The notes under the pieces are model-generated. The model had not been told where the DNA came from. It was given only the letters and a program-made list of their open reading frames with translations, and searched no databases. Position numbers and translations under genes: made by a program. A stretch of DNA of 64,000 nucleotides from Symbiobacterium thermophilum IAM 14863. Its GTDB lineage: Bacteria; Bacillota; Sulfobacillia; Symbiobacteriales; Symbiobacteriaceae. The first letter of the stretch is position 1. Each line of letters opens with the position of its first letter. Of this stretch, positions 4,540-60,036 are shown piece by piece. Location: the NCBI RefSeq assembly GCF_000009905.1, contig NC_006177.1, forward strand, positions 2,984,595-3,048,594. Direction: 5' to 3'.

Positions 4540-6597
4540 CTATCTAATCACCTGGACGAGGACCACACTGGCCACCAGCATCACCAGGAAGGTGAACATG
4601 TACTGCTGCACGTACCCGGTGGAGAGCCGGCGGAAGGCGGCGCCCAAGGCGCGGGCGATGTCGGCCCACATGTTGACCAGCGCGTCCACGACATGCTTGT
4701 CGAACCAGGCTGCAGCCTCCGATGCGTACACCGACAGGGTTCCCGACAGATTCACGAGGCCATCCACCACGTTGAGGTCGAACCAGGCGACCGCCCGGGA
4801 GAGCGCCTCCGTGGTCTTGACGGCGACGAGATCATAGAACTCATCGACATAATACTTGTTCCGGACGAGCGTGTAAACCGGCCGGAACCGGGCAATCCAC
4901 GCGGCCCGGGTCTCCGGGCGGACCACCGCGTACAGGTACCAGCCCAGGAAGATGCCCAGGAGCCCTGCCGCCGTGGCCATTCCAGTTACCATCAGCTCCG
5001 TGCTGAACTCGACATGGTGCTCCAGGCCGGGCAGGTGCAGGAAGTTCTGGATGAAGACCATCCAGTCGAGGTTCGTGAAGTGGTTGAACAGCGGGGTGCC
5101 CAGCCAGCCATAGAGCGCCGCCGGAACGGCCAGGATGATCAGCGGGATCGTCATCGCCTTCGGCGACTCGTGGGCCTGCTCATACAGGTGCATGTCCCGC
5201 GGCTCGCCGAAGAACGCCAGGTAGGTGGCCCGGGTCATGTAGTACGCCGTGAGGAACGCCGTCGTCAGGGCCATGGCGAACGGCAGCTTCTGCAGCCAGA
5301 TCGGCCAGGTGGCCACCAGCGGGTTGTGCCATTCCAGGGCCGCGAGCAGCAGCTCGTCCTTGGAGAAGAAGCCCGAGAAGCCGGGGATACCCGCCAGGGC
5401 CGCGTAGCCGACCATCCAGGTCCAGAAGGTGATCGGGATCTTCTTGCGCAGGCCGCCCATCTTGTGCAGCAGCTGGTTGTGGTGATGGGCGTGGATGACC
5501 GAGCCTGCCGCCAGGAACAGCAGCGCCTTGAAGAAGGCGTGGGTGAGCAGGTGGAAGTTGCCCGCCGTCCAGCCGCCCAGGCCCATGGCCATAATCATGT
5601 AGCCCAGCTGGGAGATGGTGGAGTAGGCGAGGACCTCCTTGATGTCCCAGCGGAGCGTGGCGATGGAGGCGGCGAACAGCGACGTGAAGGCGCCGACGAA
5701 GGTGACCACCACCAGCACCCAGGCAGGCACGTGCCCGAAGATCATGAAGGCGCGGCCCACCAGGTACACGCCGGCGGCGACCATCGTCGCGGCGTGGATG
5801 ATGGCGGAGCCCGGCGTCGGGCCGGCCATCGCGTCCGGCAGCCAGGTGTGCAGCGGGAACTGCGCCGACTTGCCGATCGCGCCGGTGAACAGCAGGAAGG
5901 CGCCCAGGGCCAGGAGGCTGGCCGTCGCCGGATCCTGCACCAGAACCGGCACCTTCTCCGCCAGGCCCGCCCAGGTCAGGTCGCGGGCGGCAAAGAAGAC
6001 GATGAAGATGCCGACCATCATGCCGATGTCGCCGACGCGGGTGGTGAGGAAGGCCTTGATCTGGCCGTAGCGGGGCCAGGCCTGCTCATACCAGTGACCG
6101 ATCAGCAGGTAAGAGCAGAGGCCCATGATCTCCCACGCCACCAGCAGCAGAAAGAGGTTGTCGGCCATGACCAGCACCAGCATGGCCATCGTGAACAGGT
6201 TCAGCGCCGCGTAGAAGCGGGGAATCCGCTTGTCGCCGTGCATGTAGGCGGAGGAGTAGTACTGGACGCAGACGGAGACCAGGGTGATCATCGGCAGCAT
6301 GAGGGCCGTCAGGTTGTCCACCTGGAACCCCATGCGCACCGTGTAGGGCCCGAAGCTGGCCCAGTCGAACGAGGCCTTCCAGGCGGGCACGGTGTTGTAC
6401 AGCACCTCGCCGCCGTGCCCCGGATCGGCGATCACCGCTGCGAGCACGCCCACCGACCACAGGAACGTGATCAGCATACCGACGGTCCCGGGGATCCACG
6501 CCCGGTCCCGCAGGACGCCGGCGAACATGGCGATCAGTGCGGAGACGGCCAGGGGGAGCGCAGCGATGACCCAGGCTGTGTTCAGGAAGAAGTCCAC
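4540..6597 (-). CDS. nuoL: NADH-quinone oxidoreductase subunit L
   Basis: 685-aa antiporter-like subunit with the long C-terminal amphipathic extension typical of NuoL. Confidence 0.85.
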   Translation of the reverse strand: MDFFLNTAWVIAALPLAVSALIAMFAGVLRDRAWIPGTVGMLITFLWSVGVLAAVIADPGHGGEVLYNTVPAWKASFDWASFGPYTVRMGFQVDNLTALMLPMITLVSVCVQYYSSAYMHGDKRIPRFYAALNLFTMAMLVLVMADNLFLLLVAWEIMGLCSYLLIGHWYEQAWPRYGQIKAFLTTRVGDIGMMVGIFIVFFAARDLTWAGLAEKVPVLVQDPATASLLALGAFLLFTGAIGKSAQFPLHTWLPDAMAGPTPGSAIIHAATMVAAGVYLVGRAFMIFGHVPAWVLVVVTFVGAFTSLFAASIATLRWDIKEVLAYSTISQLGYMIMAMGLGGWTAGNFHLLTHAFFKALLFLAAGSVIHAHHHNQLLHKMGGLRKKIPITFWTWMVGYAALAGIPGFSGFFSKDELLLAALEWHNPLVATWPIWLQKLPFAMALTTAFLTAYYMTRATYLAFFGEPRDMHLYEQAHESPKAMTIPLIILAVPAALYGWLGTPLFNHFTNLDWMVFIQNFLHLPGLEHHVEFSTELMVTGMATAAGLLGIFLGWYLYAVVRPETRAAWIARFRPVYTLVRNKYYVDEFYDLVAVKTTEALSRAVAWFDLNVVDGLVNLSGTLSVYASEAAAWFDKHVVDALVNMWADIARALGAAFRRLSTGYVQQYMFTFLVMLVASVVLVQVIR

Positions 6598-12285: not shown

Positions 12286-13041
12286 CTACAGCCCCGTCAC
12301 CAGCCGTTCGCGGAACTCGGCCAGGGAGCCCGACCGGCCCGGCGGAAGCGGCCGCCCCTCCCGGTCGATGAGGAAGTCCGTGATGAAGAAGACGTCGATC
12401 CCTGCCCGGGCAGCCGCGCCGTCCTCCTGCACGTCGTTGCCCACCATCAGGCACTCCTCGGGTCTGCGCCCGATTCTTTCCAGCACCTCGAGGAAGTACT
12501 CGGGCTGCGGCTTGCAGGCGTGCATCTCCTCGTATGCCGTCACCAGCCGCCACGGCAGGTCGTGCACCTCGATCCAGCGCATGCGCTCCTCGATGGCGAG
12601 GCGGGGGAAGAGCGGGTTGGTGGCAAGGACGATCTCGTACCCCTTTTCCAGCGCCGCCTCGACCACGGACCGGGCCATCCCGGGCAGCCCCGGGCAGGCC
12701 GCGCGCAGCTCAGGGAACCGGGTGCGGTAGAACTCCTCGAAAACCGGCATCAGCGCGGCCTCGTCGTGCCCCACGGCGGGGAAGAACGCCCGGGCGAAGA
12801 CCTGGGCGTTGGTGAGCGTGGGGTCGGTGTTGCGCACCATCGCCCCGGTGGCCGCCCACACCTCCTTCACCAGTTGCTCGGGAGGGATGATGTGGCCGAC
12901 GTACTCGGCCAGCGCCTGCATGTAGCCTCTGATGAACGCGTCGGTGTCGATGGGGAGAAGCGTGCCGTCCAGGTCAAACAGGATCGTCCGGACCAACGGA
13001 TCACCTCGTTCCACAAGTTTACGTCCTGGAGTATTGGGCAT
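12286..13041 (-). CDS. HAD-superfamily hydrolase (subfamily IA-like)
   Basis: ILFDLDGTLL motif I and later GNDVQED motif. Start placed at the ATG (MPNTPG) preceded by GGAG; the track ORF extends upstream only for lack of a stop. Confidence 0.65.
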   Translation of the reverse strand: MPNTPGRKLVERGDPLVRTILFDLDGTLLPIDTDAFIRGYMQALAEYVGHIIPPEQLVKEVWAATGAMVRNTDPTLTNAQVFARAFFPAVGHDEAALMPVFEEFYRTRFPELRAACPGLPGMARSVVEAALEKGYEIVLATNPLFPRLAIEERMRWIEVHDLPWRLVTAYEEMHACKPQPEYFLEVLERIGRRPEECLMVGNDVQEDGAAARAGIDVFFITDFLIDREGRPLPPGRSGSLAEFRERLVTGL

Positions 13042-13248
13042 TCCGCCGCCAACTCCTGCTCGCGCTTGGTGCTCACCGCTGCTCACGGCTCCGGGCAGGC
13101 GAGCCAGCAGGGCGATTGTCGAAGTAATGTCGAACGATTCTGCACACTTCGACACGGAATCCCCTTGCGCGAGGGTCACCGAGCAGCTAACATAGGGTTA
13201 GCGCGAATCACCATATGTTTCTGCAAATCTTCGTAGGGGGGAAAGCCG

Positions 13249-14136
13249 TTGCCGCTGTCACGCCTGCGTCGCCTACTCGAAGAGGAACGCTACCGCGAAG
13301 CGCAGCTAGAGGGAGAGCGGCTCATTCATGCAGGAACACTGACGGCAGAAGAGTTGGCCCACGCCTACAAGGGAACCGCCATGGCCAGCTATTACCGGCG
13401 GGAGGTCTACGCCGCGATCAAGCTGGGCGAATATGCGTTGGCGGTTGCGGAACGCACGACCAACTGGGAACTCATCAACAAATGCCGCTATGACCTCGGT
13501 GAGTACTACCTGACCCTCGGCGACTACCCCCAGGCCTTTGACCACCTATTTCAGTGCCTCGATGATCTACATCGCACGCCGCATCTGATGGAGGTGGAAG
13601 CCGGTACCCACCACAAGTTGGCCCTGCTCTTCCGCTACCGCCGGCAGTACGCGGACGCGATCGGATCGCACCACCTCTCCCTGGACCTGCTCCGGCGCTG
13701 CGGCCACTGGCCGCTGCTCATGGAGGCGCTGCGCGGCCTGGTCTACTGCTACCTGGCCCTCGACCAACCCGACGAGGCGCTCCCTTACCTGGAGCAGCTG
13801 GAGCATCTCCTGGGCGAGCACCCGAACGACCAAGTCGCCGCCAGCCTGCTCACCGACTGGGCTTATTACCATCAGAGGACTGGCGACCTGCGCCAGTCCA
13901 TGGCCTTCTGCACCCGGGCGATGGCCCCCGGCCTGCCCGGCCAGGACGAAAACGTCCTCTCCACCGCATCGGTCATCGCCGGCGAGAACGCCCTGTCCCT
14001 GGGCCGGTACGACGAGGCCCAGCTCTTCGCGAACCTGGCGATGCAGTACGCCCTGGAGTCCCGCCAGTCGGCCCTGATGAACCGGGCAGCGGCCCTGCGC
14101 CGAAAGCTATATGAGCGGGGCCAAGCCCGCCCCTGA
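13249..14136 (+). CDS. TPR-repeat protein (Rap/RNPP-like helical repeat domain, no HTH)
   Basis: All-helical repeat sequence with repeated Y/L/A spacing; TTG start after GGGGGGAAAG. Confidence 0.5.
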   Translation: MPLSRLRRLLEEERYREAQLEGERLIHAGTLTAEELAHAYKGTAMASYYRREVYAAIKLGEYALAVAERTTNWELINKCRYDLGEYYLTLGDYPQAFDHLFQCLDDLHRTPHLMEVEAGTHHKLALLFRYRRQYADAIGSHHLSLDLLRRCGHWPLLMEALRGLVYCYLALDQPDEALPYLEQLEHLLGEHPNDQVAASLLTDWAYYHQRTGDLRQSMAFCTRAMAPGLPGQDENVLSTASVIAGENALSLGRYDEAQLFANLAMQYALESRQSALMNRAAALRRKLYERGQARP

Positions 14137-14239
14137 CACGGCCTTCGAGGTTCGGGCGGATGCAAAAAGAGACCCGGTACAGCGTACCGGGAGCCCGACT
14201 GGTTGCTTCATCGACAAACAACGGAAAGGGGAGAATCGA

Positions 14240-14341
14240 ATGCGCCGGATCCTCATCAGCCTGTTCATCATGGCCAGCATGCTCGCCATGGCCGCGACCG
14301 CCCTGGCCGAGCCGCGGAGCGGCGGTCCTTCCTCTTTCTAA
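14240..14341 (+). CDS. 33-aa secreted pre-peptide (candidate signalling pro-peptide), MRRILISLFIMASMLAMAATALA/EPRSGGPSSF
   Basis: Strong SD AAAGGGGAG 7-8 nt before the ATG. Canonical signal peptide with AxA cleavage site. Sits about 100 nt downstream of the TPR gene. Confidence 0.5.
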   Translation: MRRILISLFIMASMLAMAATALAEPRSGGPSSF

Positions 14342-14418
14342 GCTTTACGGACAACAACTTAGGCGCTGCATTCATGCAAGGTCGGCGGAGGCCTGTCCTC
14401 CACACAGGAGGACGGGCC

Positions 14419-15099
14419 TCACCCTTTGTGCGCCTGCGACGCGCCCCGGATGAGCAGGACGAGCTCCTCCGGCGTGATCTGCGCCTCGGCCGCCATCGAG
14501 ATCGCCTCGGCGTATCGAATCATCTGGGCCGGGGTTATGTCCACCGGCGCCGACTCCATGCGGCCCCGGGCGTAGAAAGAGAGCGGGATGCCCGTGATGG
14601 AGACCATCTGGCTCAGCACCATCGGGCCGACCTCGCAGTTGCGCTCCATGATGTCGTTCAGCGCCCGCACCGAAAGGCCGAGCTGGTACGCGACCACGGG
14701 ACGTGTGAAGGTCTCGGGGAATTCCTGGCACAGGAAGTCGACTACCCGGGCGAAGCGCTGCTCGACGGTCTCCAGCTCGATCTTGCGCCGCTCCTCCGGT
14801 GACAGTTGCTCGTAGTAGCGGGCAAAGCGCTGCCCCACCGTCCAGGCCTGTCCACCGATGAGCAGGGCGGCGCGGTCGTCATAAGGCGGCGCGTGCACCT
14901 CGCCCAGGAGGAACGCGATGCTCACGCCCAGCGCCTTGGCCAGGCGCCCCAGGGCATCGATGGTCGGGTTGACCTTCGCCCCCTTCTCCAGTTGCGAGAT
15001 GTACCCGACCGCGAGGCCGCTCTTCTCGCTAACCTGCTGAAGGATCAACCCCTGCTGGTTCCGCGCCCAGGCCAGCCTTTCACCCATGGTACTGTGCAT
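14419..15099 (-). CDS. XRE-family HTH transcriptional regulator with about 150-aa helical C-terminal domain
   Basis: N-terminal HTH_XRE (LAWARNQQGLILQQVSEKSGLAVGYISQLEKG); start at the ATG 5 nt after GAAGGGGGGG. Confidence 0.65.
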   Translation of the reverse strand: MHSTMGERLAWARNQQGLILQQVSEKSGLAVGYISQLEKGAKVNPTIDALGRLAKALGVSIAFLLGEVHAPPYDDRAALLIGGQAWTVGQRFARYYEQLSPEERRKIELETVEQRFARVVDFLCQEFPETFTRPVVAYQLGLSVRALNDIMERNCEVGPMVLSQMVSITGIPLSFYARGRMESAPVDITPAQMIRYAEAISMAAEAQITPEELVLLIRGASQAHKG

Positions 15100-15152
15100 G
15101 GTCGCCCCCCCTTCGCCACACACGCTCCCCACATCAAGAGTTTGGGACCTTC

Positions 15153-15190
15153 ATTTTAACAGCACGTGAGACTGCGAGTCAACTGTTGAC
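15153..15190 (-). promoter_or_regulatory. Promoter of the XRE gene with overlapping palindromic operator GTCAACTGTTGAC
   Basis: Minus strand reads TTGACT-17 nt-TTAAAAT; perfect 6-1-6 inverted repeat overlaps the -35. Confidence 0.5.
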
Positions 15191-15273
15191 AGATTATTTC
15201 GCGTTCAACGACATAACCGGGAGGGACGCACCGTCTGTCGAACCGGCACGCCCCTCCCGCTGCTGCCGCCGCG

Positions 15274-17161: not shown

Positions 17162-17605
17162 TCACGCCTGCTCCCCGAGCGCGTCCACGGCTGCCAGAAT
17201 CGTCTCGGTGGCGGGCATCCCCGGCTGTACCCAGCGCACGATGCCGTTGCGGTCCACCAGGACCACCGTGCGGGCGATGAACCCCAGCGCGTTCAGCACG
17301 CCGTACGCTCGCGCCACGTGCTTCCCCTCGTCCGCGCAGATCGGGAAGCCGAAGCGGTTCTTCTCCGCCCACCGCTGGTGCGAGGCCAGGCTGCCGGGAT
17401 TGACGGCCACGACCTGCACATCCCGCGCGGCGTACGCCGCGGCCGCGTCACGCGCAGCCGCCAGCTGCCGGTTTCAGCCCGGGGTGTTGTCCTTCGGGTA
17501 AAAGATGATCAGCGCCCGCTTCCGCCCCCGCAGTGCGGAGAGCGTGAACGGCCCCTCCGTGGACTCGAGGGTGAAATCCGGAGCCACCTCGCCCGGTTGA
17601 ACCAT
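17162..17605 (-). CDS. bcp: Bcp-type peroxiredoxin with in-frame TGA (17474-17476) at the peroxidatic-Cys position: probable selenocysteine peroxiredoxin
   Basis: N-terminal piece MVQPGEVAPDFTL...ALIIFYPKDNTPG stops at TGA. Same frame continues NRQLAAARD...VQVVAVNPGSLASHQRWAEKNRFGFPICADEGKHVARAYGVL, colinear with Bcp FYPKDxTPGCTxEACxFRD...GVSxDSxESHxKFAEKxxLxFPLLSD. GGGAG SD before the ATG at 17605. Hairpins GCAGC-UGGCG-GCUGC and CGCGGC-GUAC-GCCGCG lie just 3' of the UGA. Confidence 0.6.
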
Positions 17606-17679
17606 CGGCGCCTTCACTCCCGTTTCCTTTTGATCGGCTATTCGCCGCAGCCCGCCAGATTCCTCCAGCCCCGCGGCGA

Positions 17680-49856: not shown

Positions 49857-51329
49857 TTACTTCTGCGCCTGCTCTTCGAGCGCCTGGGTCACCAGCTTCA
49901 GGGCCATCTGCGGGTTGGCCCGCCCACGGGTCCGCTTCATGATCTGGCCGACGAACCACTGGGCGGCCGACTGCTTGCCGGCCTTCCAGTCCTCGAAGAC
50001 CTTCGGGTTGGAGGCCACCACCTCCCGGGCGATGGCGAGCAGCTCGCCCTCATCGGCCACCTGGGTGAGCCCCTCTTCCTTGACGATGGTCTCGGCGTCC
50101 TTGCCCGTCTCCACCATCTTGTCGAAGACGGTCTTGGCGATCTTGCCGGTGATGGTTCCCTGCTCGATCAGCTTCAGCATGCCCACCAGCTGCTCGGGCG
50201 TGACGGGGATCTGTTCGGGGCCGAGCCCCTTCTCGTTCATCACCCGGTACAACTCGTTGATCTGCCAGTTGGCGACGGTCTTGGCCTGGCCGGCGCCGGC
50301 CAGCTCCACCGCGTGCAGGAACCACTGGGCGTACTCCCGCTCGGCGACGATGACGGAGGCGTCGTAAGCGGAGAGGCCGTACTCGGTCATCAGCCGCTGC
50401 ATGAGGGCGTCGGGCAGCTCGGGCAGGCCGGCCCGGATGCGTTCGATCTCCTCGGCCGACACCTCCAGCGGCGGCAGGTCGGGCTCGGGGAAGTAGCGGT
50501 AGTCCTCGGCGTCCTCCTTGGAGCGCAGCAGCACCGAGATGCCCTGGGCGTCGCGCCAGGAACGGGTCTCCTGCTCGGGCTGGCCGCCCTCCTCCAGGAT
50601 ACGGATATGCCGCTTCTCCTCGTACTCGATGCCCCGCATGACGGCCGAGAAGGAGTTGACGTTCTTCAGCTCCGTCCGCACGCCGTACTCGCTGGACCCC
50701 GCCGGGCGCACCGACAGGTTCACGTCGCAGCGCATGGAGCCCTCTTCCATCTTCACGTCGCTGACGCCCGAGTACTTCAGGATCGTGCGCAGCTTCTGCA
50801 GGAACAGGCCGGCCTCCTCGGCCGAGCGCAGGTCCGGTTCGGTGACGATCTCGATGAGCGGCACGCCGGCGCGGTTGAAGTCGACCAGCGAGTAATCCGC
50901 CGCCGCGACGTCGTCGCCGGCATGGAGCAGCTTCCCCGCGTCGGTCTCCAGGTGGATCCGCTTGATGCGGATGCGGCGGGTGGTACCGTCCTTCTTCGTG
51001 ATGTCCACGTAGCCGTCGTAGCACAGCGGCAGGTCGAATTGGCTGATCTGGTAGCCCGAGGGCAGATCGGCGTAGAAGTAGTTCTTCCGGTCGAACTTGG
51101 AGTGCCGCTGGATCTTGCAGTTCAGGGCCAGTCCCGCGCGGATGGTGTACTCCACGGCCTTGTAATTCAGGACCGGCAGCGCGCCGGGCAGGGCGAGGCA
51201 CACCGGGCAGACGTTGGTGTTCGGCTCGGCCCCGAACTCGTTCTTGCAACCGCACCAGATCTTGGTCTCAGTGGACAGCTCCACGTGGACCTCGAGGCCG
51301 ATAACGGTCTCCCACTTGGCGGTGGACAC
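49857..51329 (-). CDS. gatB: Asp/Glu-tRNA amidotransferase subunit B
   Basis: GatB N-terminal and C-terminal YqeY-like domains. Confidence 0.9.
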   Translation of the reverse strand: MSTAKWETVIGLEVHVELSTETKIWCGCKNEFGAEPNTNVCPVCLALPGALPVLNYKAVEYTIRAGLALNCKIQRHSKFDRKNYFYADLPSGYQISQFDLPLCYDGYVDITKKDGTTRRIRIKRIHLETDAGKLLHAGDDVAAADYSLVDFNRAGVPLIEIVTEPDLRSAEEAGLFLQKLRTILKYSGVSDVKMEEGSMRCDVNLSVRPAGSSEYGVRTELKNVNSFSAVMRGIEYEEKRHIRILEEGGQPEQETRSWRDAQGISVLLRSKEDAEDYRYFPEPDLPPLEVSAEEIERIRAGLPELPDALMQRLMTEYGLSAYDASVIVAEREYAQWFLHAVELAGAGQAKTVANWQINELYRVMNEKGLGPEQIPVTPEQLVGMLKLIEQGTITGKIAKTVFDKMVETGKDAETIVKEEGLTQVADEGELLAIAREVVASNPKVFEDWKAGKQSAAQWFVGQIMKRTRGRANPQMALKLVTQALEEQAQK

Positions 51330-51331
51330 GG

Positions 51332-52816
51332 CTACCGACCTCCTTCCTCAGTCAGGGCCGGACGGGCCTCGTGATGCTTGGTCACCTTCTGGTACGCCCA
51401 GGCGATCTGCAGGATCTGGGTGTCGGCAAAGGGCTTGCCGATCAGCTGCATCCCGACCGGCAGGCCGTCCACGAACCCGCAGGGGACGGAGACGGCCGGC
51501 AGCCCCGCCAGGTTGACCGGAATGGTGCAGATATCGCCCAGGTACATGGAGACCGGGTCGTCGACCTTCTCCCCGATCTTCCAGGCGGTGAACGGCGTGG
51601 TGGGGGTCACCAGGGCGTCGTACCGCTCAAAGGCGCGCTCGAAGTCGCGCACGACCAGGGTGCGTACCTGCTGCGCCCGCCGGTAGTAGGCGTCGTAATG
51701 GCCTGCGGAGAGGACGTAGGTGCCCAGCATGATGCGGCGCTTCACTTCCGTGCCGAAGCCCTCGCCGCGGGTCTTGCTGTACATCTCGTGCAACCCGCCG
51801 GCCTGGGCGGCGCGGTAGCCGTACCGCACGCCGTCGAACCGGGCCAGGTTTGAAGAGGCCTCGGCGACCGCGATGACGTAGTACGCCGACAGCGCGTACT
51901 CGGTGGAGGGCAGCGAGCACTCCTCCACGGTCGCGCCGAGCTCCTCCAACTGGGCAATGGCCTCCTCGACCCGGGCCTTCACACCGGGGTCGATGCCGGG
52001 GCCGAGCAGCTCCTTCGGCACGCCGAGGCGCACGCCGCTGAGGGACGGTTCGCCGCCGAACTTCAGCGCCGGCGGGGTGCGCCCGGCGTTGGTCGCGTCG
52101 CGCCGGTCGGGTCCGGCGATCACCTCGAAGAGCCGGGCCACGTCCTCCACATCGCGGCCCATCGGACCCACCTGGTCCAGCGACGAGGCGAACGCGACCA
52201 CGCCGTAGCGGCTGACGTACCCGTAGGTGGGCTTCAGCCCGACGATGCCGGTGAATGCGGCCGGCTGCCGGATGGAGCCGCCCGTGTCCGTGCCCAGGGC
52301 GAGAGGGGCCTCCCCGGCCGCGACCGCCGCGGCCGACCCGGAGGATGAGCCGCCGGGCACGCGCTCCAGGTCCCACGGGTTGCGGGTCACGCCGAACGCA
52401 GAGGATTCGCCCGAGGAGCCCATCGCGAACTCGTCCATGTTCGCCTTGCCGATGATCATCGCGCCGGCGGCACGCAGCCGCTCCACCACCGTCGCGTCGA
52501 AGGGCGAGACGTACCCCTTCAGGATGCGGGAGGCGCAGGTGGTCTCCATCCCGCTGGTGCAGATGTTATCCTTCACCGCGATCGGCACGCCGGCCAGCGG
52601 GCCCAGCTCCGTGTCGCCGGCCTTGCGGCGCGCGTCCAGCTTCTTCGCCCGCTCGATCACGTGATCGGCCGCCACCGTGATGAACGCGCCCACCGCGGGT
52701 TCAACCTGTGCGATGCGGCTCAGGGCAGATTCCGCAATTTCCACCGCCGACAGCTCCCCGGCCAGAAAGAGCCGGTTGAGCCGGGCCGCGCTCAGCATGT
52801 GCGTCATCCCAGACAT
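51332..52816 (-). CDS. gatA: Glutamyl-tRNA(Gln) amidotransferase subunit A
   Basis: Amidase signature GGSSGGSAAAVAAG. Confidence 0.9.
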   Translation of the reverse strand: MSGMTHMLSAARLNRLFLAGELSAVEIAESALSRIAQVEPAVGAFITVAADHVIERAKKLDARRKAGDTELGPLAGVPIAVKDNICTSGMETTCASRILKGYVSPFDATVVERLRAAGAMIIGKANMDEFAMGSSGESSAFGVTRNPWDLERVPGGSSSGSAAAVAAGEAPLALGTDTGGSIRQPAAFTGIVGLKPTYGYVSRYGVVAFASSLDQVGPMGRDVEDVARLFEVIAGPDRRDATNAGRTPPALKFGGEPSLSGVRLGVPKELLGPGIDPGVKARVEEAIAQLEELGATVEECSLPSTEYALSAYYVIAVAEASSNLARFDGVRYGYRAAQAGGLHEMYSKTRGEGFGTEVKRRIMLGTYVLSAGHYDAYYRRAQQVRTLVVRDFERAFERYDALVTPTTPFTAWKIGEKVDDPVSMYLGDICTIPVNLAGLPAVSVPCGFVDGLPVGMQLIGKPFADTQILQIAWAYQKVTKHHEARPALTEEGGR

Positions 52817-52819
52817 CCC

Positions 52820-53110
52820 TTAGCCCTCCGTAATCTTCGGCACCTTGTAACAGCCGGCCTCCGCCTCCGGGGCCAGCGCCAGAACCGCCTCCCGGTCCAG
52901 CGACGGCAGAGGCTTGTCCTCCCGGAAGGGGTGCTGCAAGGCGACGCCGTGGTAGGTGGGAGGCACATCCGCCACGTCCAGCCGATTGATGCGTTCCACG
53001 TGTTCGAGAATGCGGTTGAGTTGCTCCGCGAAGGTCTCGATCTCTTCCTCGGAGAGGCTCAGGCGGGCCAGCCGGGCCACGCGCTGAATCTCGTCCCGCG
53101 TTACCGCCAC
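52820..53110 (-). CDS. gatC: Asp/Glu-tRNA amidotransferase subunit C
   Basis: 96-aa GatC sequence, first gene of gatCAB. Confidence 0.85.
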   Translation of the reverse strand: MAVTRDEIQRVARLARLSLSEEEIETFAEQLNRILEHVERINRLDVADVPPTYHGVALQHPFREDKPLPSLDREAVLALAPEAEAGCYKVPKITEG

Positions 53111-53280
53111 TGTCGATCACCACCATCCCGAATTTCGGACAACTTGTTCAGCCGGAGCGTGCGCGTAACTACCTGATTCTAACACACCGCATCCCAGACA
53201 AGCAATGTCGCTGCCAGCGCCTGTACGCGCCGGATGGCCGGACCCACAGGGTCCGGCCATCGTCGGGTTGGATTCTTCCT

Positions 53281-54297
53281 CTACTTCGTCCGCATGTGGC
53301 AGGCGACCCAGTGGTCGTTGCCCACGTCCACCAGCGGCGGCTCCTCCTCCTTGCAGATGTCGCCGACCTGCGGCTGATAGCGGCACCGGGTGTGGAACCG
53401 GCAGCCCGAAGGCGGATTGACCGGCGAGGGCACGTCGCCCTCCAGCACGATCCGCTCCCGCTTCAGCGTCGGATCGGGGATCGGAATGGCGGACATCAGC
53501 GCCTCGGTGTACGGGTGCAGCGGATTGGTGTACAGCTCGTTCGCCGGCGAGATCTCCATCATCTTGCCCAGGTACATCACGCCGACCCGGTCGGAGACGT
53601 GCTTCACCACCGCCAGGCCGTGGGCGATGAACAGGTAGGTCAGCCCGAACTCCTTCTGCAGGTCCTCCAGCAGGTTGAGCACCTGCGACTGGATCGACAC
53701 GTCCAGCGCCGACACCGGCTCGTCGCAGACGATCAGCTTCGGGTTCAGCGCCAGCGCCCGGGCGATGCCGATACGCTGCCGCTGGCCGCCGGAGAACTCG
53801 TGCGGATACCGCCGGGCGTGGAACGAGGCCAGGCCCACCACGTCCAGCAGCTCGTGGACCCGCTTGGTCTTGGCCGCGCCCCGGGCCACGCCGTGGATCT
53901 CCAGCGGCTCGCCGATGATGTCGCCCACCGTCATGCGGGGGTTCAGCGAGGAGTACGGGTCCTGGAAGATGATCTGCATCTCCCGCCGGAGCTTGCGCAT
54001 CTCCTCGCGGTTCAGTTCGTAGATGTTCCTTCCCTCAAAGTAGACCTGGCCTTCCGTGGGCTCCTGCAGCCGCAGCAGAACCTTGCCCATCGTGGTCTTG
54101 CCGCAGCCGGACTCGCCCACCAGACCCAGCGTCTCACCGCGGCGGATCTGGAAGGAGACGCCGTCCACCGCCTTGGCGTAACCCACTGTGCGGGCGATGA
54201 TGCCGCCGCCGGTGACGGGGAAGTGCTTCTTCAGGTTGCGCACGTCGACCAGGACGTCGCCGGTCTGCGCCTTGGTGCCAACCGCGGTGCTCATCAC
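53281..54297 (-). CDS. Oligopeptide/dipeptide ABC transporter ATP-binding protein (OppF/DppF-like)
   Basis: Walker [10 protein letters not shown], signature LSGGQRQR, C-terminal oligopeptide-ABC extension with Cys motif. Confidence 0.8.
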
Positions 54298-55343
54298 GCC
54301 GTGACCCCCTTCATGAGCCGTTCTTCAGCGAGGAAGCAGGCAACTTTCCGCCCGGGCGCCACCTGCTGAAGGGTGGGCTGTTCGGCCCGGCACCGGTCGG
54401 TTGCCACGGGGCACCGCGGATGGAACCGGCAGCCTTCGGGCAGGTTCAGCGGATTCGGCACCGCGCCCTCGATCACGTGCAGCTTCTCAACCTCCTGATC
54501 GAGGCGCGGGATCGACTTCAGCAGACCCTCGGTGTACGGGTGAAGGGGATTCTGGAAGAGAGCGACCGCATCGGCCTCCTCCACCACCTTGCCGGCGTAC
54601 ATGACGACCACGCGCTCGCACATCTCCGCCACGACGCCCAGGTCGTGGGTGATGAGCATGATCGCCATGCCCAGCTCCTTCTTCAGCTTCTTCATCAGCT
54701 CCAGGATCTGGGCCTGGATCGTCACGTCCAGCGCGGTGGTGGGCTCGTCCGCGATGAGCAGCTTCGGGTTGCAGGACAGCGCCATCGCGATCATGACGCG
54801 CTGCCGCATACCGCCCGACAGCTGGTGCGGATACTCCTTCACCCGCTGCTCGGGCAGCGGGATGCCAACCAGCCGCAGCATCTCGATGGCCTTCTCGATC
54901 GCTTCCTTGTGCGACAGGCCCTGATGCAGCTCGATGGCCTCGGCGATCTGATCCCCGATGGTGTAGACCGGGTTCAGCGAGGTCATCGGCTCCTGGAAGA
55001 TCATGGAGATCTCGTTCCCCCGGATCTTCCGCATCTCCGCCTCGGACTTCTTGAGCAGATCCTCACCCTCGAACAGGATCTCGCCACCCACGATCTTGCC
55101 CGGGGGATTGGGAATGAGCCTCATGATCGAGAGGGAGGTTACACTCTTCCCGCAGCCGGACTCGCCCACGACACCCAGGGTTTCACCACGGTTGATATAG
55201 AGATCCACCCCGTCAACGGCCTTTACGACGCCGTCTTCGGTGAAATAGTGGGTCTGAAGGTTTCGGATTTCGACCAGCTTCTCGCTCACAGGCTCACTCC
55301 TCTTCTCCTTCACACCTACACATGACTCCGCCCGGCGTTTCAT
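54294..55343 (-). CDS. Oligopeptide/dipeptide ABC transporter ATP-binding protein (OppD/DppD-like)
   Basis: Walker [10 protein letters not shown], signature LSGGMRQR; ATGA overlap with the downstream ATPase gene. Confidence 0.8.
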
Positions 55344-55471
55344 GCCCGCCTCATGACAATACTCCCTTTGTGCTCATGAGACGCAGTTTCGCGCGGGTTG
55401 GTTTAGATTTTTTCGCTCAGCCTATACGCGAATCCTCCCGATTCCCCCTGCATCATCTTGGCGAGGTTTCC

Positions 55472-60036
<4,565 letters not shown>

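Follow-up and report, generated by a model that had tools for sequence, protein, structure and literature searches.

Peptide quorum sensing through RRNPP receptors has been studied mostly in Bacilli, Lactobacillales and some Clostridia, and on their mobile elements. The Rap receptors of Bacillus are about 380 aa long, against 295 aa for the tetratricopeptide repeat (TPR) protein considered here. The effector domain of Rap is an N-terminal three-helix bundle (PMC9765709), and in the Rap-pLS20 system a TPR protein without a DNA-binding domain acts on the DNA-bound repressor Rco-pLS20 and is inactivated by the imported peptide Phr*-pLS20 (PMC7641744). We analyzed a 64-kb stretch of the Symbiobacterium thermophilum IAM 14863 chromosome (hereafter the window), in which the gene for a TPR-only protein (identical to BAD41764 / WP_011196898) is followed on the same strand by a 33-codon gene for a Sec-type pre-peptide. 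We favor, with moderate confidence, reading this locus as a chromosomal two-gene RRNPP-like (Rap/Phr-like) signaling module; our best reading of the pair is a new RRNPP-like receptor/pro-peptide family with a TPR-only receptor, and it may be tied to spore formation. The locus has the following features:

13117-13123 (+), 13128-13134 (+) and 13148-13154 (-), both strands: a trio of perfect Spo0A boxes (TGTCGAA) that precedes the -35 hexamer of the TPR gene by 12-49 nt.
13166-13194 (+): sigma-A-like promoter of the TPR gene, TTGCGC-17-TAACAT, read from the sequence; the hexamer pair recurs at the same position in related loci.
13249-14136 (+): TPR-only protein, candidate cytoplasmic peptide receptor, 295 aa, TTG start.
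14149-14202: conserved structured spacer, with an outer stem TTCGGGC/GCCCGA around an A-rich stretch and the hairpin CCCGGTAC-AGC-GTACCGGG (14173-14191).
14226-14341 (+): Shine-Dalgarno (SD) sequence GAAAGGGGAG and 33-codon pre-peptide gene (ATG at 14240, stop codon ending at 14341), encoding MRRILISLFIMASMLAMAATALAEPRSGGPSSF.
14388-14420 (+): hairpin GAGGCCTGTCCTCC / GGAGGACGGGCCTC (inverted repeat I17), abutting the stop codon of a convergent XRE-family gene.

Pfam matches of the 295-aa protein were to TPR families alone, and no helix-turn-helix (HTH) was found in it by Pfam, by NCBIfam or in the structure model. The model is confident (pLDDT 95, pTM 0.87) and has 15 helices, which we interpret as seven pairs plus a capping helix, without any further domain; among bacterial structures, it most closely matched Rap, NprR, AimR and PlcR. 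As modeled, the protein is a bare seven-repeat superhelix resembling RRNPP receptors in fold, and it has the TPR-type peptide-binding superhelix on which the cytoplasmic receptors of these systems are built. The Rap chains (332-359 residues) aligned to the model over 258-277 residues, a portion that we read as their TPR part, and the helix pairs and cap leave no N-terminal domain that could correspond to the three-helix bundle. The family profile matched RapI with E = 9e-5 and RapF with E = 4e-3, designed TPR proteins, LGN and kinesin light chain scored better, and NCBIfam gave no Rap model match. Judging from the model, the protein is an RRNPP receptor by anatomy, yet we treat it as a family of its own and do not file it as Rap, because generic TPR proteins are at least as similar to it as Rap is, and because it has neither an HTH nor the three-helix bundle. 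Neither Pfam nor NCBIfam holds a family specific to the TPR protein or to the pre-peptide. The TTG start is kept in nearly all related loci (it is GTG in L007, the L-numbers being labels of related loci), which fits a regulatory protein whose translation is deliberately kept at a low rate.

The pre-peptide gene lies 103 nt past the TPR stop codon and 77 nt ahead of the XRE stop codon. Its product consists of a signal peptide, MRRILISLFIMASMLAMAATALA, with a predicted cut after ALA, and the tail EPRSGGPSSF. Genome and metagenome scans with the TPR family, together with single-protein look-ups, yielded 18 distinct loci covering the TPR gene and its downstream spacer. A small open reading frame (ORF) on the same strand and with the same SD lies 3' of the TPR gene in every one of them (18/18), while TPR identity ranges from 92% to 43%. 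All 16 distinct peptides share an ORF length of 30-44 aa, a basic n-region, a hydrophobic h-region, and a signal peptide of 23-24 aa with A or V at -3 and A at -1. The predicted cleavage site is followed by a conserved core, [D/E]-[V/P/A]-R-[S/T]-x-G-P (in short [DE]xRxxGP), mostly continued by x-x-[L/F/W], and the C-terminal extension after the core varies from 0 to 11 residues. To judge by ORF architecture, the candidate receptor gene is thus accompanied by the adjacent small gene for an exported pro-peptide that RRNPP systems possess. Pairwise nucleotide differences within the peptide ORF number 321/178/600 at codon positions 1/2/3, and codon differences comprise 404 synonymous and 395 nonsynonymous changes. 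Because it is conserved in 18/18 TPR loci and shows this third-position bias, the micro-ORF is, by its sequence record, a real gene, clearly beyond chance. The TPR gene, like the peptide gene, is real, and purifying selection acts on both.

Public protein collections contain the exact 33-aa sequence as an unnamed entry, recorded solely on contigs of up to 2.6 kb, and annotation of the reference chromosome seems to have missed the peptide ORF. S. terraclitae and a Bacillota metagenome-assembled genome (MAG) have close variants that are labeled hypothetical proteins. NCBIfam returned only weak matches, within residues 1-30 of the peptides and to N-terminal positions of models mostly named as exported or outer-membrane proteins; the window peptide matched weakly, with residues 1-25 and 1-26, the N-termini of two small-protein models. 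A variant of the peptide gene in L008 (k87-505932, ~4941-4988) has the hydrophobic core of the signal peptide deleted in frame and the tail kept (MRKKAEPRSGGPSSL); if real, this variant would make the tail intracellularly, without export.

Adjacency of the two genes alone says little, because the whole neighborhood is syntenic across Symbiobacteriaceae (nuoDCAB, HAD hydrolase, TPR, peptide, XRE). Five XRE-bearing lineages (L016/17, L018, L020, L021 and L022) have neither the TPR gene nor the peptide ORF; three of the five nest among TPR-bearing lineages in the XRE tree, and we therefore read these absences as joint loss of TPR and peptide. Furthermore, L006, a contig from an S. thermophilum MAG, matches the window at 99.8-99.9% identity across nuo, HAD, XRE and the sulfhydrylase gene, whereas identity drops to 88.5% over 13200-14400; 147 of the 159 differences fall in the TPR 5' untranslated region, the TPR gene, the spacer, the peptide gene and its 3' spacer. 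Synonymous divergence (dS) is 0.42 in the TPR gene vs. 0.003-0.013 in its neighbors, with a TPR dN/dS of 0.12, and for this reason the L006 pair is, on sequence grounds, an imported allele under purifying selection rather than a product of local decay. Its peptide differs at two residues (EPRSGGPSSF to EPRSAGPSSL). The exchanged segment runs from just after the -10 hexamer to before the terminal hairpin, with XRE outside it; its boundaries therefore match the predicted TPR-peptide transcription unit. TPR and peptide have been gained, lost and exchanged as one unit: the co-inheritance and co-diversification expected of an RRNPP receptor and its peptide are seen in their joint presence in 18/18 loci, their joint absence from the five TPR-less lineages and this exchange.

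An exhaustive HMMER search returned ~55 further full-length representatives of ~295 aa, a wider family than a word-indexed search had suggested. The 59 family members that we aligned were too divergent for DNA search patterns to be built, and a scan of phage contigs found no relatives there. One distant member, P0184, which is 30% identical to the window TPR protein over its full length, is the only one that was placed in genomic context:

L028 4001-5117 (also L029 and L030), in a Bacillota genome of 66% GC: distant TPR homologue and EHREM pre-peptide.

The P0184 gene sits between deoB and dacF-spoIIAA-spoIIAB-sigF, with no XRE nearby, and 83 nt 3' of it lie an SD and a 48-aa ORF, MRVLAAGLLTVFALSVWGGIGLF-EHREMFSLRPI-EHREMLS-EHREMGS, followed by a terminator. 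Tandemly repeated pheromone units have been described for Phr propeptides (PMC11343458); by analogy, a hydrophobic leader with three tandem charged motifs would be the pattern of a duplicated Phr pro-peptide.

The core Spo0A box is TGTCGAA (PMC3485338). This heptamer occurs 10 times in the window, where 3.8 occurrences are expected, and the three copies within 38 nt upstream of the TPR promoter are far beyond chance. Perfect or one-off boxes stand at the same relative position in most TPR-bearing loci, and perfect boxes are ~23 times denser in the 200 nt upstream of the TPR gene than in the rest of these loci; the XRE-HAD spacers of the TPR-less loci showed no such box. By sequence, the TPR gene would qualify as a member of the Spo0A regulon, having at least one 0A box near its promoter, and S. 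thermophilum is a spore-former. The promoter itself (TTGCGC-17-TAACAT) was missed by a strict consensus scan. A fourth perfect TGTCGAA lies at 15236-15242, between the arms of an inverted repeat (15209-15233 / 15244-15268) 3' of an O-acetylhomoserine sulfhydrylase gene and ~55 nt upstream of the XRE -35 hexamer, and may be there by chance. On the other side of the TPR promoter, the HAD hydrolase ORF (12286-13179, minus strand) is over-extended at its 5' end: orthologues are 233-238 aa long, with the DxDGT motif near the N-terminus, which suggests a start near 13041 and hence a divergent HAD-TPR spacer of ~207 nt containing the Spo0A boxes.

The hairpin at 14388-14420 is likely to be the terminator of the TPR-peptide transcript, and other loci have its equivalent with a T-rich tail. 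Within the spacer between the two genes, 96% of the cells in the covariation count were paired, with compensatory changes in three pairs, and no Rfam family was significant in the window or in two deeper loci. The TPR-peptide spacers (window 14149-14202; L002-L005, L013 and L014) carry conserved hairpins of several forms (TTTGGTGGCC..GGCCACCAAA, TTTTCGC-N5-GCGAAAA, nested TTCGGGC/GCCCGAA, and GGACCG-CTGGCA-CGGTCC), none with an Rfam match. A sigma-54 promoter considered at the TGGCAC motif of the spacer was rejected by eye, the spacing to TGCA being two bases short.

The hairpin at 14173-14191, together with TCTCTTTTT, forms a terminator on the minus strand, the sole canonical terminator that the terminator scan found in the region. 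The XRE gene lacks a canonical terminator right after its stop codon, and the first on its strand lies past the peptide ORF (window 14173-14419). A hairpin homologous to 14173-14191 stands directly 3' of XRE in the TPR-less L016, L018 and L021, and on this account the XRE mRNA of S. thermophilum probably ends at 14173-14191, running antisense across the whole peptide gene. A degenerate form of the TTTTCGC-type hairpin, with a terminator hairpin, is also found downstream of XRE in TPR-less genomes.

A first-pass annotation of this DNA, made from the sequence alone, had proposed a TPR protein paired in Rap/Phr style with a Sec-type pre-peptide, and the joint occurrence and loss of the two genes, their exchange as a unit, the distant pair with its repeats and the RRNPP structural neighbors all bear out this core idea. 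The 295-aa all-TPR protein without HTH that it described is there, with Pfam hits to TPR only; the epithet "Rap-like" suits the fold and goes too far in that the N-terminal three-helix bundle of Rap is missing. The annotation was right to see a micro-ORF with a strong SD, a signal peptide and a short tail, hidden in frame inside a longer ORF of 76 aa (14111-14341), although the start is at 14240 and not at ~14241 as was implied. It had also suggested looking for the peptide ORF beside TPR genes in related genomes, where the ORF proved to be a constant companion (18/18 loci). Its reading of the regulatory sites had overlooked the three Spo0A boxes upstream of the TPR promoter.

We propose that a sigma-A-type promoter preceded by three Spo0A boxes would give one transcript comprising the TPR gene, the 103-nt structured spacer and the pre-peptide gene, and that Spo0A would modulate this transcript. 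Sec would export the pre-peptide, and signal peptidase would cut it after ALA to release EPRSGGPSSF, possibly trimmed to a form containing R-x-x-G-P. The peptide would accumulate outside, be re-imported and bind the concave face of the TPR superhelix, and its binding would alter the hold of the TPR protein on a partner protein. We infer all of these steps, namely co-transcription, Spo0A control, export, cleavage, re-import, peptide-TPR binding and the output of the module. Sporulation-initiation proteins are candidates for the partner, because of the Spo0A boxes and the distant homologue beside spoIIA-sigF; the neighboring XRE regulator, suggested by analogy with Rap-pLS20 and Rco, is a less likely one. 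An Opp-type ATPase gene pair in the window (53284-55343) counts on the side of this reading.

Several observations weigh against such a signaling module. The count of 18/18 reflects mostly vertical inheritance, since all the Symbiobacteriaceae loci are syntenic, which leaves the losses, a single allele exchange and a single distant locus as independent support. No output domain can be recognized in the receptor, which has neither an HTH nor a Rap-type three-helix bundle, and the TPR fold is generic. On the side of the peptide, the core is near-invariant (DVRTSGPGPL / EVRTGGPG) across receptors that are only 45-50% identical, which is less diversification than is typical of pherotype systems; the conserved part lies directly after the signal peptide, vs. 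at the C-terminus in most Phr peptides; and the h-region is conserved to an unusual degree and could itself be functional. No plus-strand promoter specific to the peptide gene was found, and the hairpin in the spacer is a terminator for the opposite strand. Furthermore, Symbiobacterium was not found in the text of the RRNPP_detector survey (PMC10075063) or in those of its supplementary tables that were searched, nor in the other of the two large RRNPP surveys that were searched. A literature search on quorum sensing or peptide signaling in Symbiobacterium, or on the locus tags STH2778-2781, returned nothing relevant.

Two further features, both from the convergent gene, are needed to weigh the alternatives:

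14419-15132 (-), gene 14419-15099: XRE-family regulator, with HTH_3 at residues 20-75 and 226 aa from ATG 15099.
15153-15190 (-): XRE promoter match TTGACT-18-TAAAAT with the overlapping palindrome GTCAACTGTTGAC (15178-15190), from a sequence scan.

Orthologues place the XRE start at ATG 15099, and the exact 226-aa protein is present in public collections; 89 orthologue clusters were obtained. The protein has an invariant N-terminal HTH, then an apparent second HTH-like unit of five helices, and two C-terminal helices. We considered its C-terminal domain as an Rgg/PlcR-like peptide receptor and rejected this, the model having a mean pLDDT of 74 and the fold search having returned weak matches to generic XRE-HTH regulators alone. 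The XRE -35 hexamer is conserved, as is the upstream AATAATCTGT motif, but only the closest relatives have a perfect left arm of the palindrome; 1.5 matches to the palindrome with up to two mismatches are expected in the window by chance, and no further copy was found in the window, including near the TPR or peptide promoters; the palindrome is unremarkable on its own. In L019 (JAWLHU010000013.1, 5001-5861), a 286-aa XRE paralogue with an extended C-terminus is flanked by gatCAB on one side and an oppD/oppF-like ATPase pair on the other. This gatB-gatA / oppDF / ligA synteny recurs in the window (49860-57514), where the gap of ~470 nt between gatA and the ATPase genes is too small for the 286-aa paralogue.

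The alternative that survives best, though we consider it unlikely, is a three-component circuit in which the TPR protein would counteract the adjacent XRE regulator as a peptide-responsive anti-repressor, in the way that Rap-pLS20 counteracts Rco, with the palindrome as operator. TPR and XRE are convergent neighbors in all Symbiobacteriaceae loci that have the TPR gene, there is a precedent for a TPR anti-repressor whose target is a repressor bound to DNA and which a Phr peptide inactivates (PMC7641744), and the XRE transcript, which probably extends to the hairpin at 14173-14191 antisense to the peptide gene, would couple both units. The adjacency is, however, explained by vertical synteny (nuo-HAD-TPR-pep-XRE), and the regulator goes its own way elsewhere: its orthologues are highly conserved in the five lineages that have neither TPR nor peptide, no XRE adjoins the distant TPR-peptide pair, and the L006 exchange spans TPR and peptide, not XRE. 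The palindrome is unique in the window and perfect in close relatives only, and has no copy at the TPR or peptide promoters. The first-pass annotation had taken the XRE gene, with an uncharacterized helical C-terminal domain, into the cassette, and its palindrome as the likely operator. The convergent gene 77 nt away and the palindrome overlapping its -35 are indeed present, but the data do not support them as cassette members: the gene is older and more conserved, persists in the five lineages and is absent beside the distant pair, the palindrome occurs once in the window and is perfect in the nearest relatives only, and the C-terminus looks like a second HTH-like domain and not a peptide-binding TPR. 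XRE is most likely a conserved older core gene unrelated to the TPR-peptide module, and the gene and its palindrome are probably not part of it.

A second alternative keeps the coupling of the two genes and gives up the diffusible signal. The product would then be a single-pass membrane microprotein, or an active hydrophobic segment, that anchors or regulates the TPR protein locally, and we regard this as quite improbable. In its favor, the h-region is well conserved (the window and L003, with TPR proteins at 53% identity, share 15 of the 23 signal-peptide residues), the extracellular tail has just 7-21 residues, and the TPR protein lacks an output domain of its own. Against it, an AxA-type cleavage motif is kept in 16/16 distinct sequences and the most conserved motif sits in the hydrophilic tail; in addition, the distant peptide has three tandem hydrophilic repeats, typical of processed pro-peptides, and L008 deletes the hydrophobic core in frame and keeps the tail.

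Far less probable still is that the small ORF encodes a toxin-like peptide of type I, with the antisense 3' end of the XRE transcript as its control and no relation to the TPR gene. An antisense RNA over the whole peptide ORF is plausible, because the only canonical minus-strand terminator (14191-14173 and its T-run) lies past it, and the product is short and hydrophobic. No antisense promoter was found for the peptide ORF, and the peptide is never seen without TPR and is absent wherever TPR is absent, its cleavage site and hydrophilic motif are conserved, and the distant locus has the TPR-peptide arrangement without a convergent gene. That the small ORF is a chance frame beside a housekeeping TPR scaffold, for which the generic repeats and the apparent lack of annotation on the reference chromosome (the 33-aa sequence being on contigs of up to 2.6 kb only) might speak, is contradicted by the comparative data (third-position bias, with SD and frame conserved across 43-92% TPR identity), by its being called as a hypothetical protein in S. 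terraclitae and MAGs, and by the dispensability of the TPR gene in several lineages, and we give it next to no credence.

The two-gene signaling module remains our preferred reading, and comparative genomics can in this way rescue micro-ORFs that annotation often misses. If it holds, RRNPP signaling extends to Symbiobacteriaceae and related high-GC Bacillota, the receptor is pared down to its peptide-binding superhelix, which raises the question of how the signal is passed on, and EPRSGGPSSF is a concrete, synthesizable candidate signal for a bacterium that is difficult to cultivate by itself. Together with the homologue beside spoIIA-sigF, the Spo0A boxes suggest that cell density might be tied, in a way that can be tested, to entry into sporulation, outside the lineage in which Rap-Phr of Bacillus has been studied. 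A more far-reaching reading is tentative, and on balance we doubt it: the locus would be the founding example of minimal TPR-only RRNPP-like receptors across high-GC, deep-branching, spore-forming Bacillota (~55 further clusters at 50% identity), coupling a secreted [D/E]xRxxGP-type peptide to the start of sporulation, with the receptor under Spo0A control and acting on proteins of the Spo0A pathway, not on DNA. Symbiobacterium is known for growing only alongside a partner bacterium; were this founding-family reading true, it would gain a self-produced density signal.

Elsewhere in the window, the frame of an AhpC/TSA (BCP-like) peroxiredoxin (17162-17620, minus strand) is interrupted by a single in-frame TGA at 17474-17476 (FYPKDNTPG-TGA-NRQ...) and continues into an 85-aa ORF. 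The TGA falls at what we take to be the catalytic-cysteine position of AhpC/TSA peroxiredoxins, and the same gene is called in two pieces in L023. The peroxiredoxin is a candidate selenocysteine-containing protein.

Among described systems, the eukaryotic TPR domains of LGN/Pins and APPBP2 have no evolutionary or functional link to the window protein and show only that such a superhelix can read a short linear motif of this type. Rgg, NprR, PlcR, PrgX and AimR differ from it in that the window protein lacks an HTH. SinI-SinR of Bacillus subtilis resembles the window locus in placing an XRE-type repressor beside the gene of a Spo0A-controlled antagonist, but the antagonist SinI is a small helical protein instead of one built from TPRs, and the system has no secreted peptide. 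The candidates of RRNPP_detector (PMC10075063) are, like our pair, TPR proteins of Bacillota beside a small ORF with a ribosome-binding site and a signal-peptide-like N-terminus; unlike them, the window family has no HTH. In the Rap-pLS20/Rco-pLS20/Phr*-pLS20 system, as here, an XRE-type regulator accompanies a TPR protein without a DNA-binding domain and its peptide gene, whereas the window XRE is an older core gene also found where the module is absent, and no XRE stands beside the distant TPR-peptide pair. Compared with Rap-Phr of Bacillus (RRNPP/RRNPPA, including the phage pairs Rap105-Phr105 and Rap3T-Phr3T), the window protein lacks the three-helix bundle and is no more similar in sequence to Rap than to generic TPR proteins, the peptide motif lies directly after the signal-peptidase site and not at the C-terminus as in Phr, and the host belongs to a high-GC basal lineage of Bacillota (Symbiobacteriaceae), with no relatives on phage contigs. 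The two nevertheless share an HTH-less receptor gene followed on the same strand by a Sec-type pre-peptide gene, E/D and R in the peptide core (ERGMT and ERPVG in Phr), tandem peptide units in one relative of the window pair as in Phr105 and Phr3T, and a link to Spo0A and sporulation, here by boxes and gene context.

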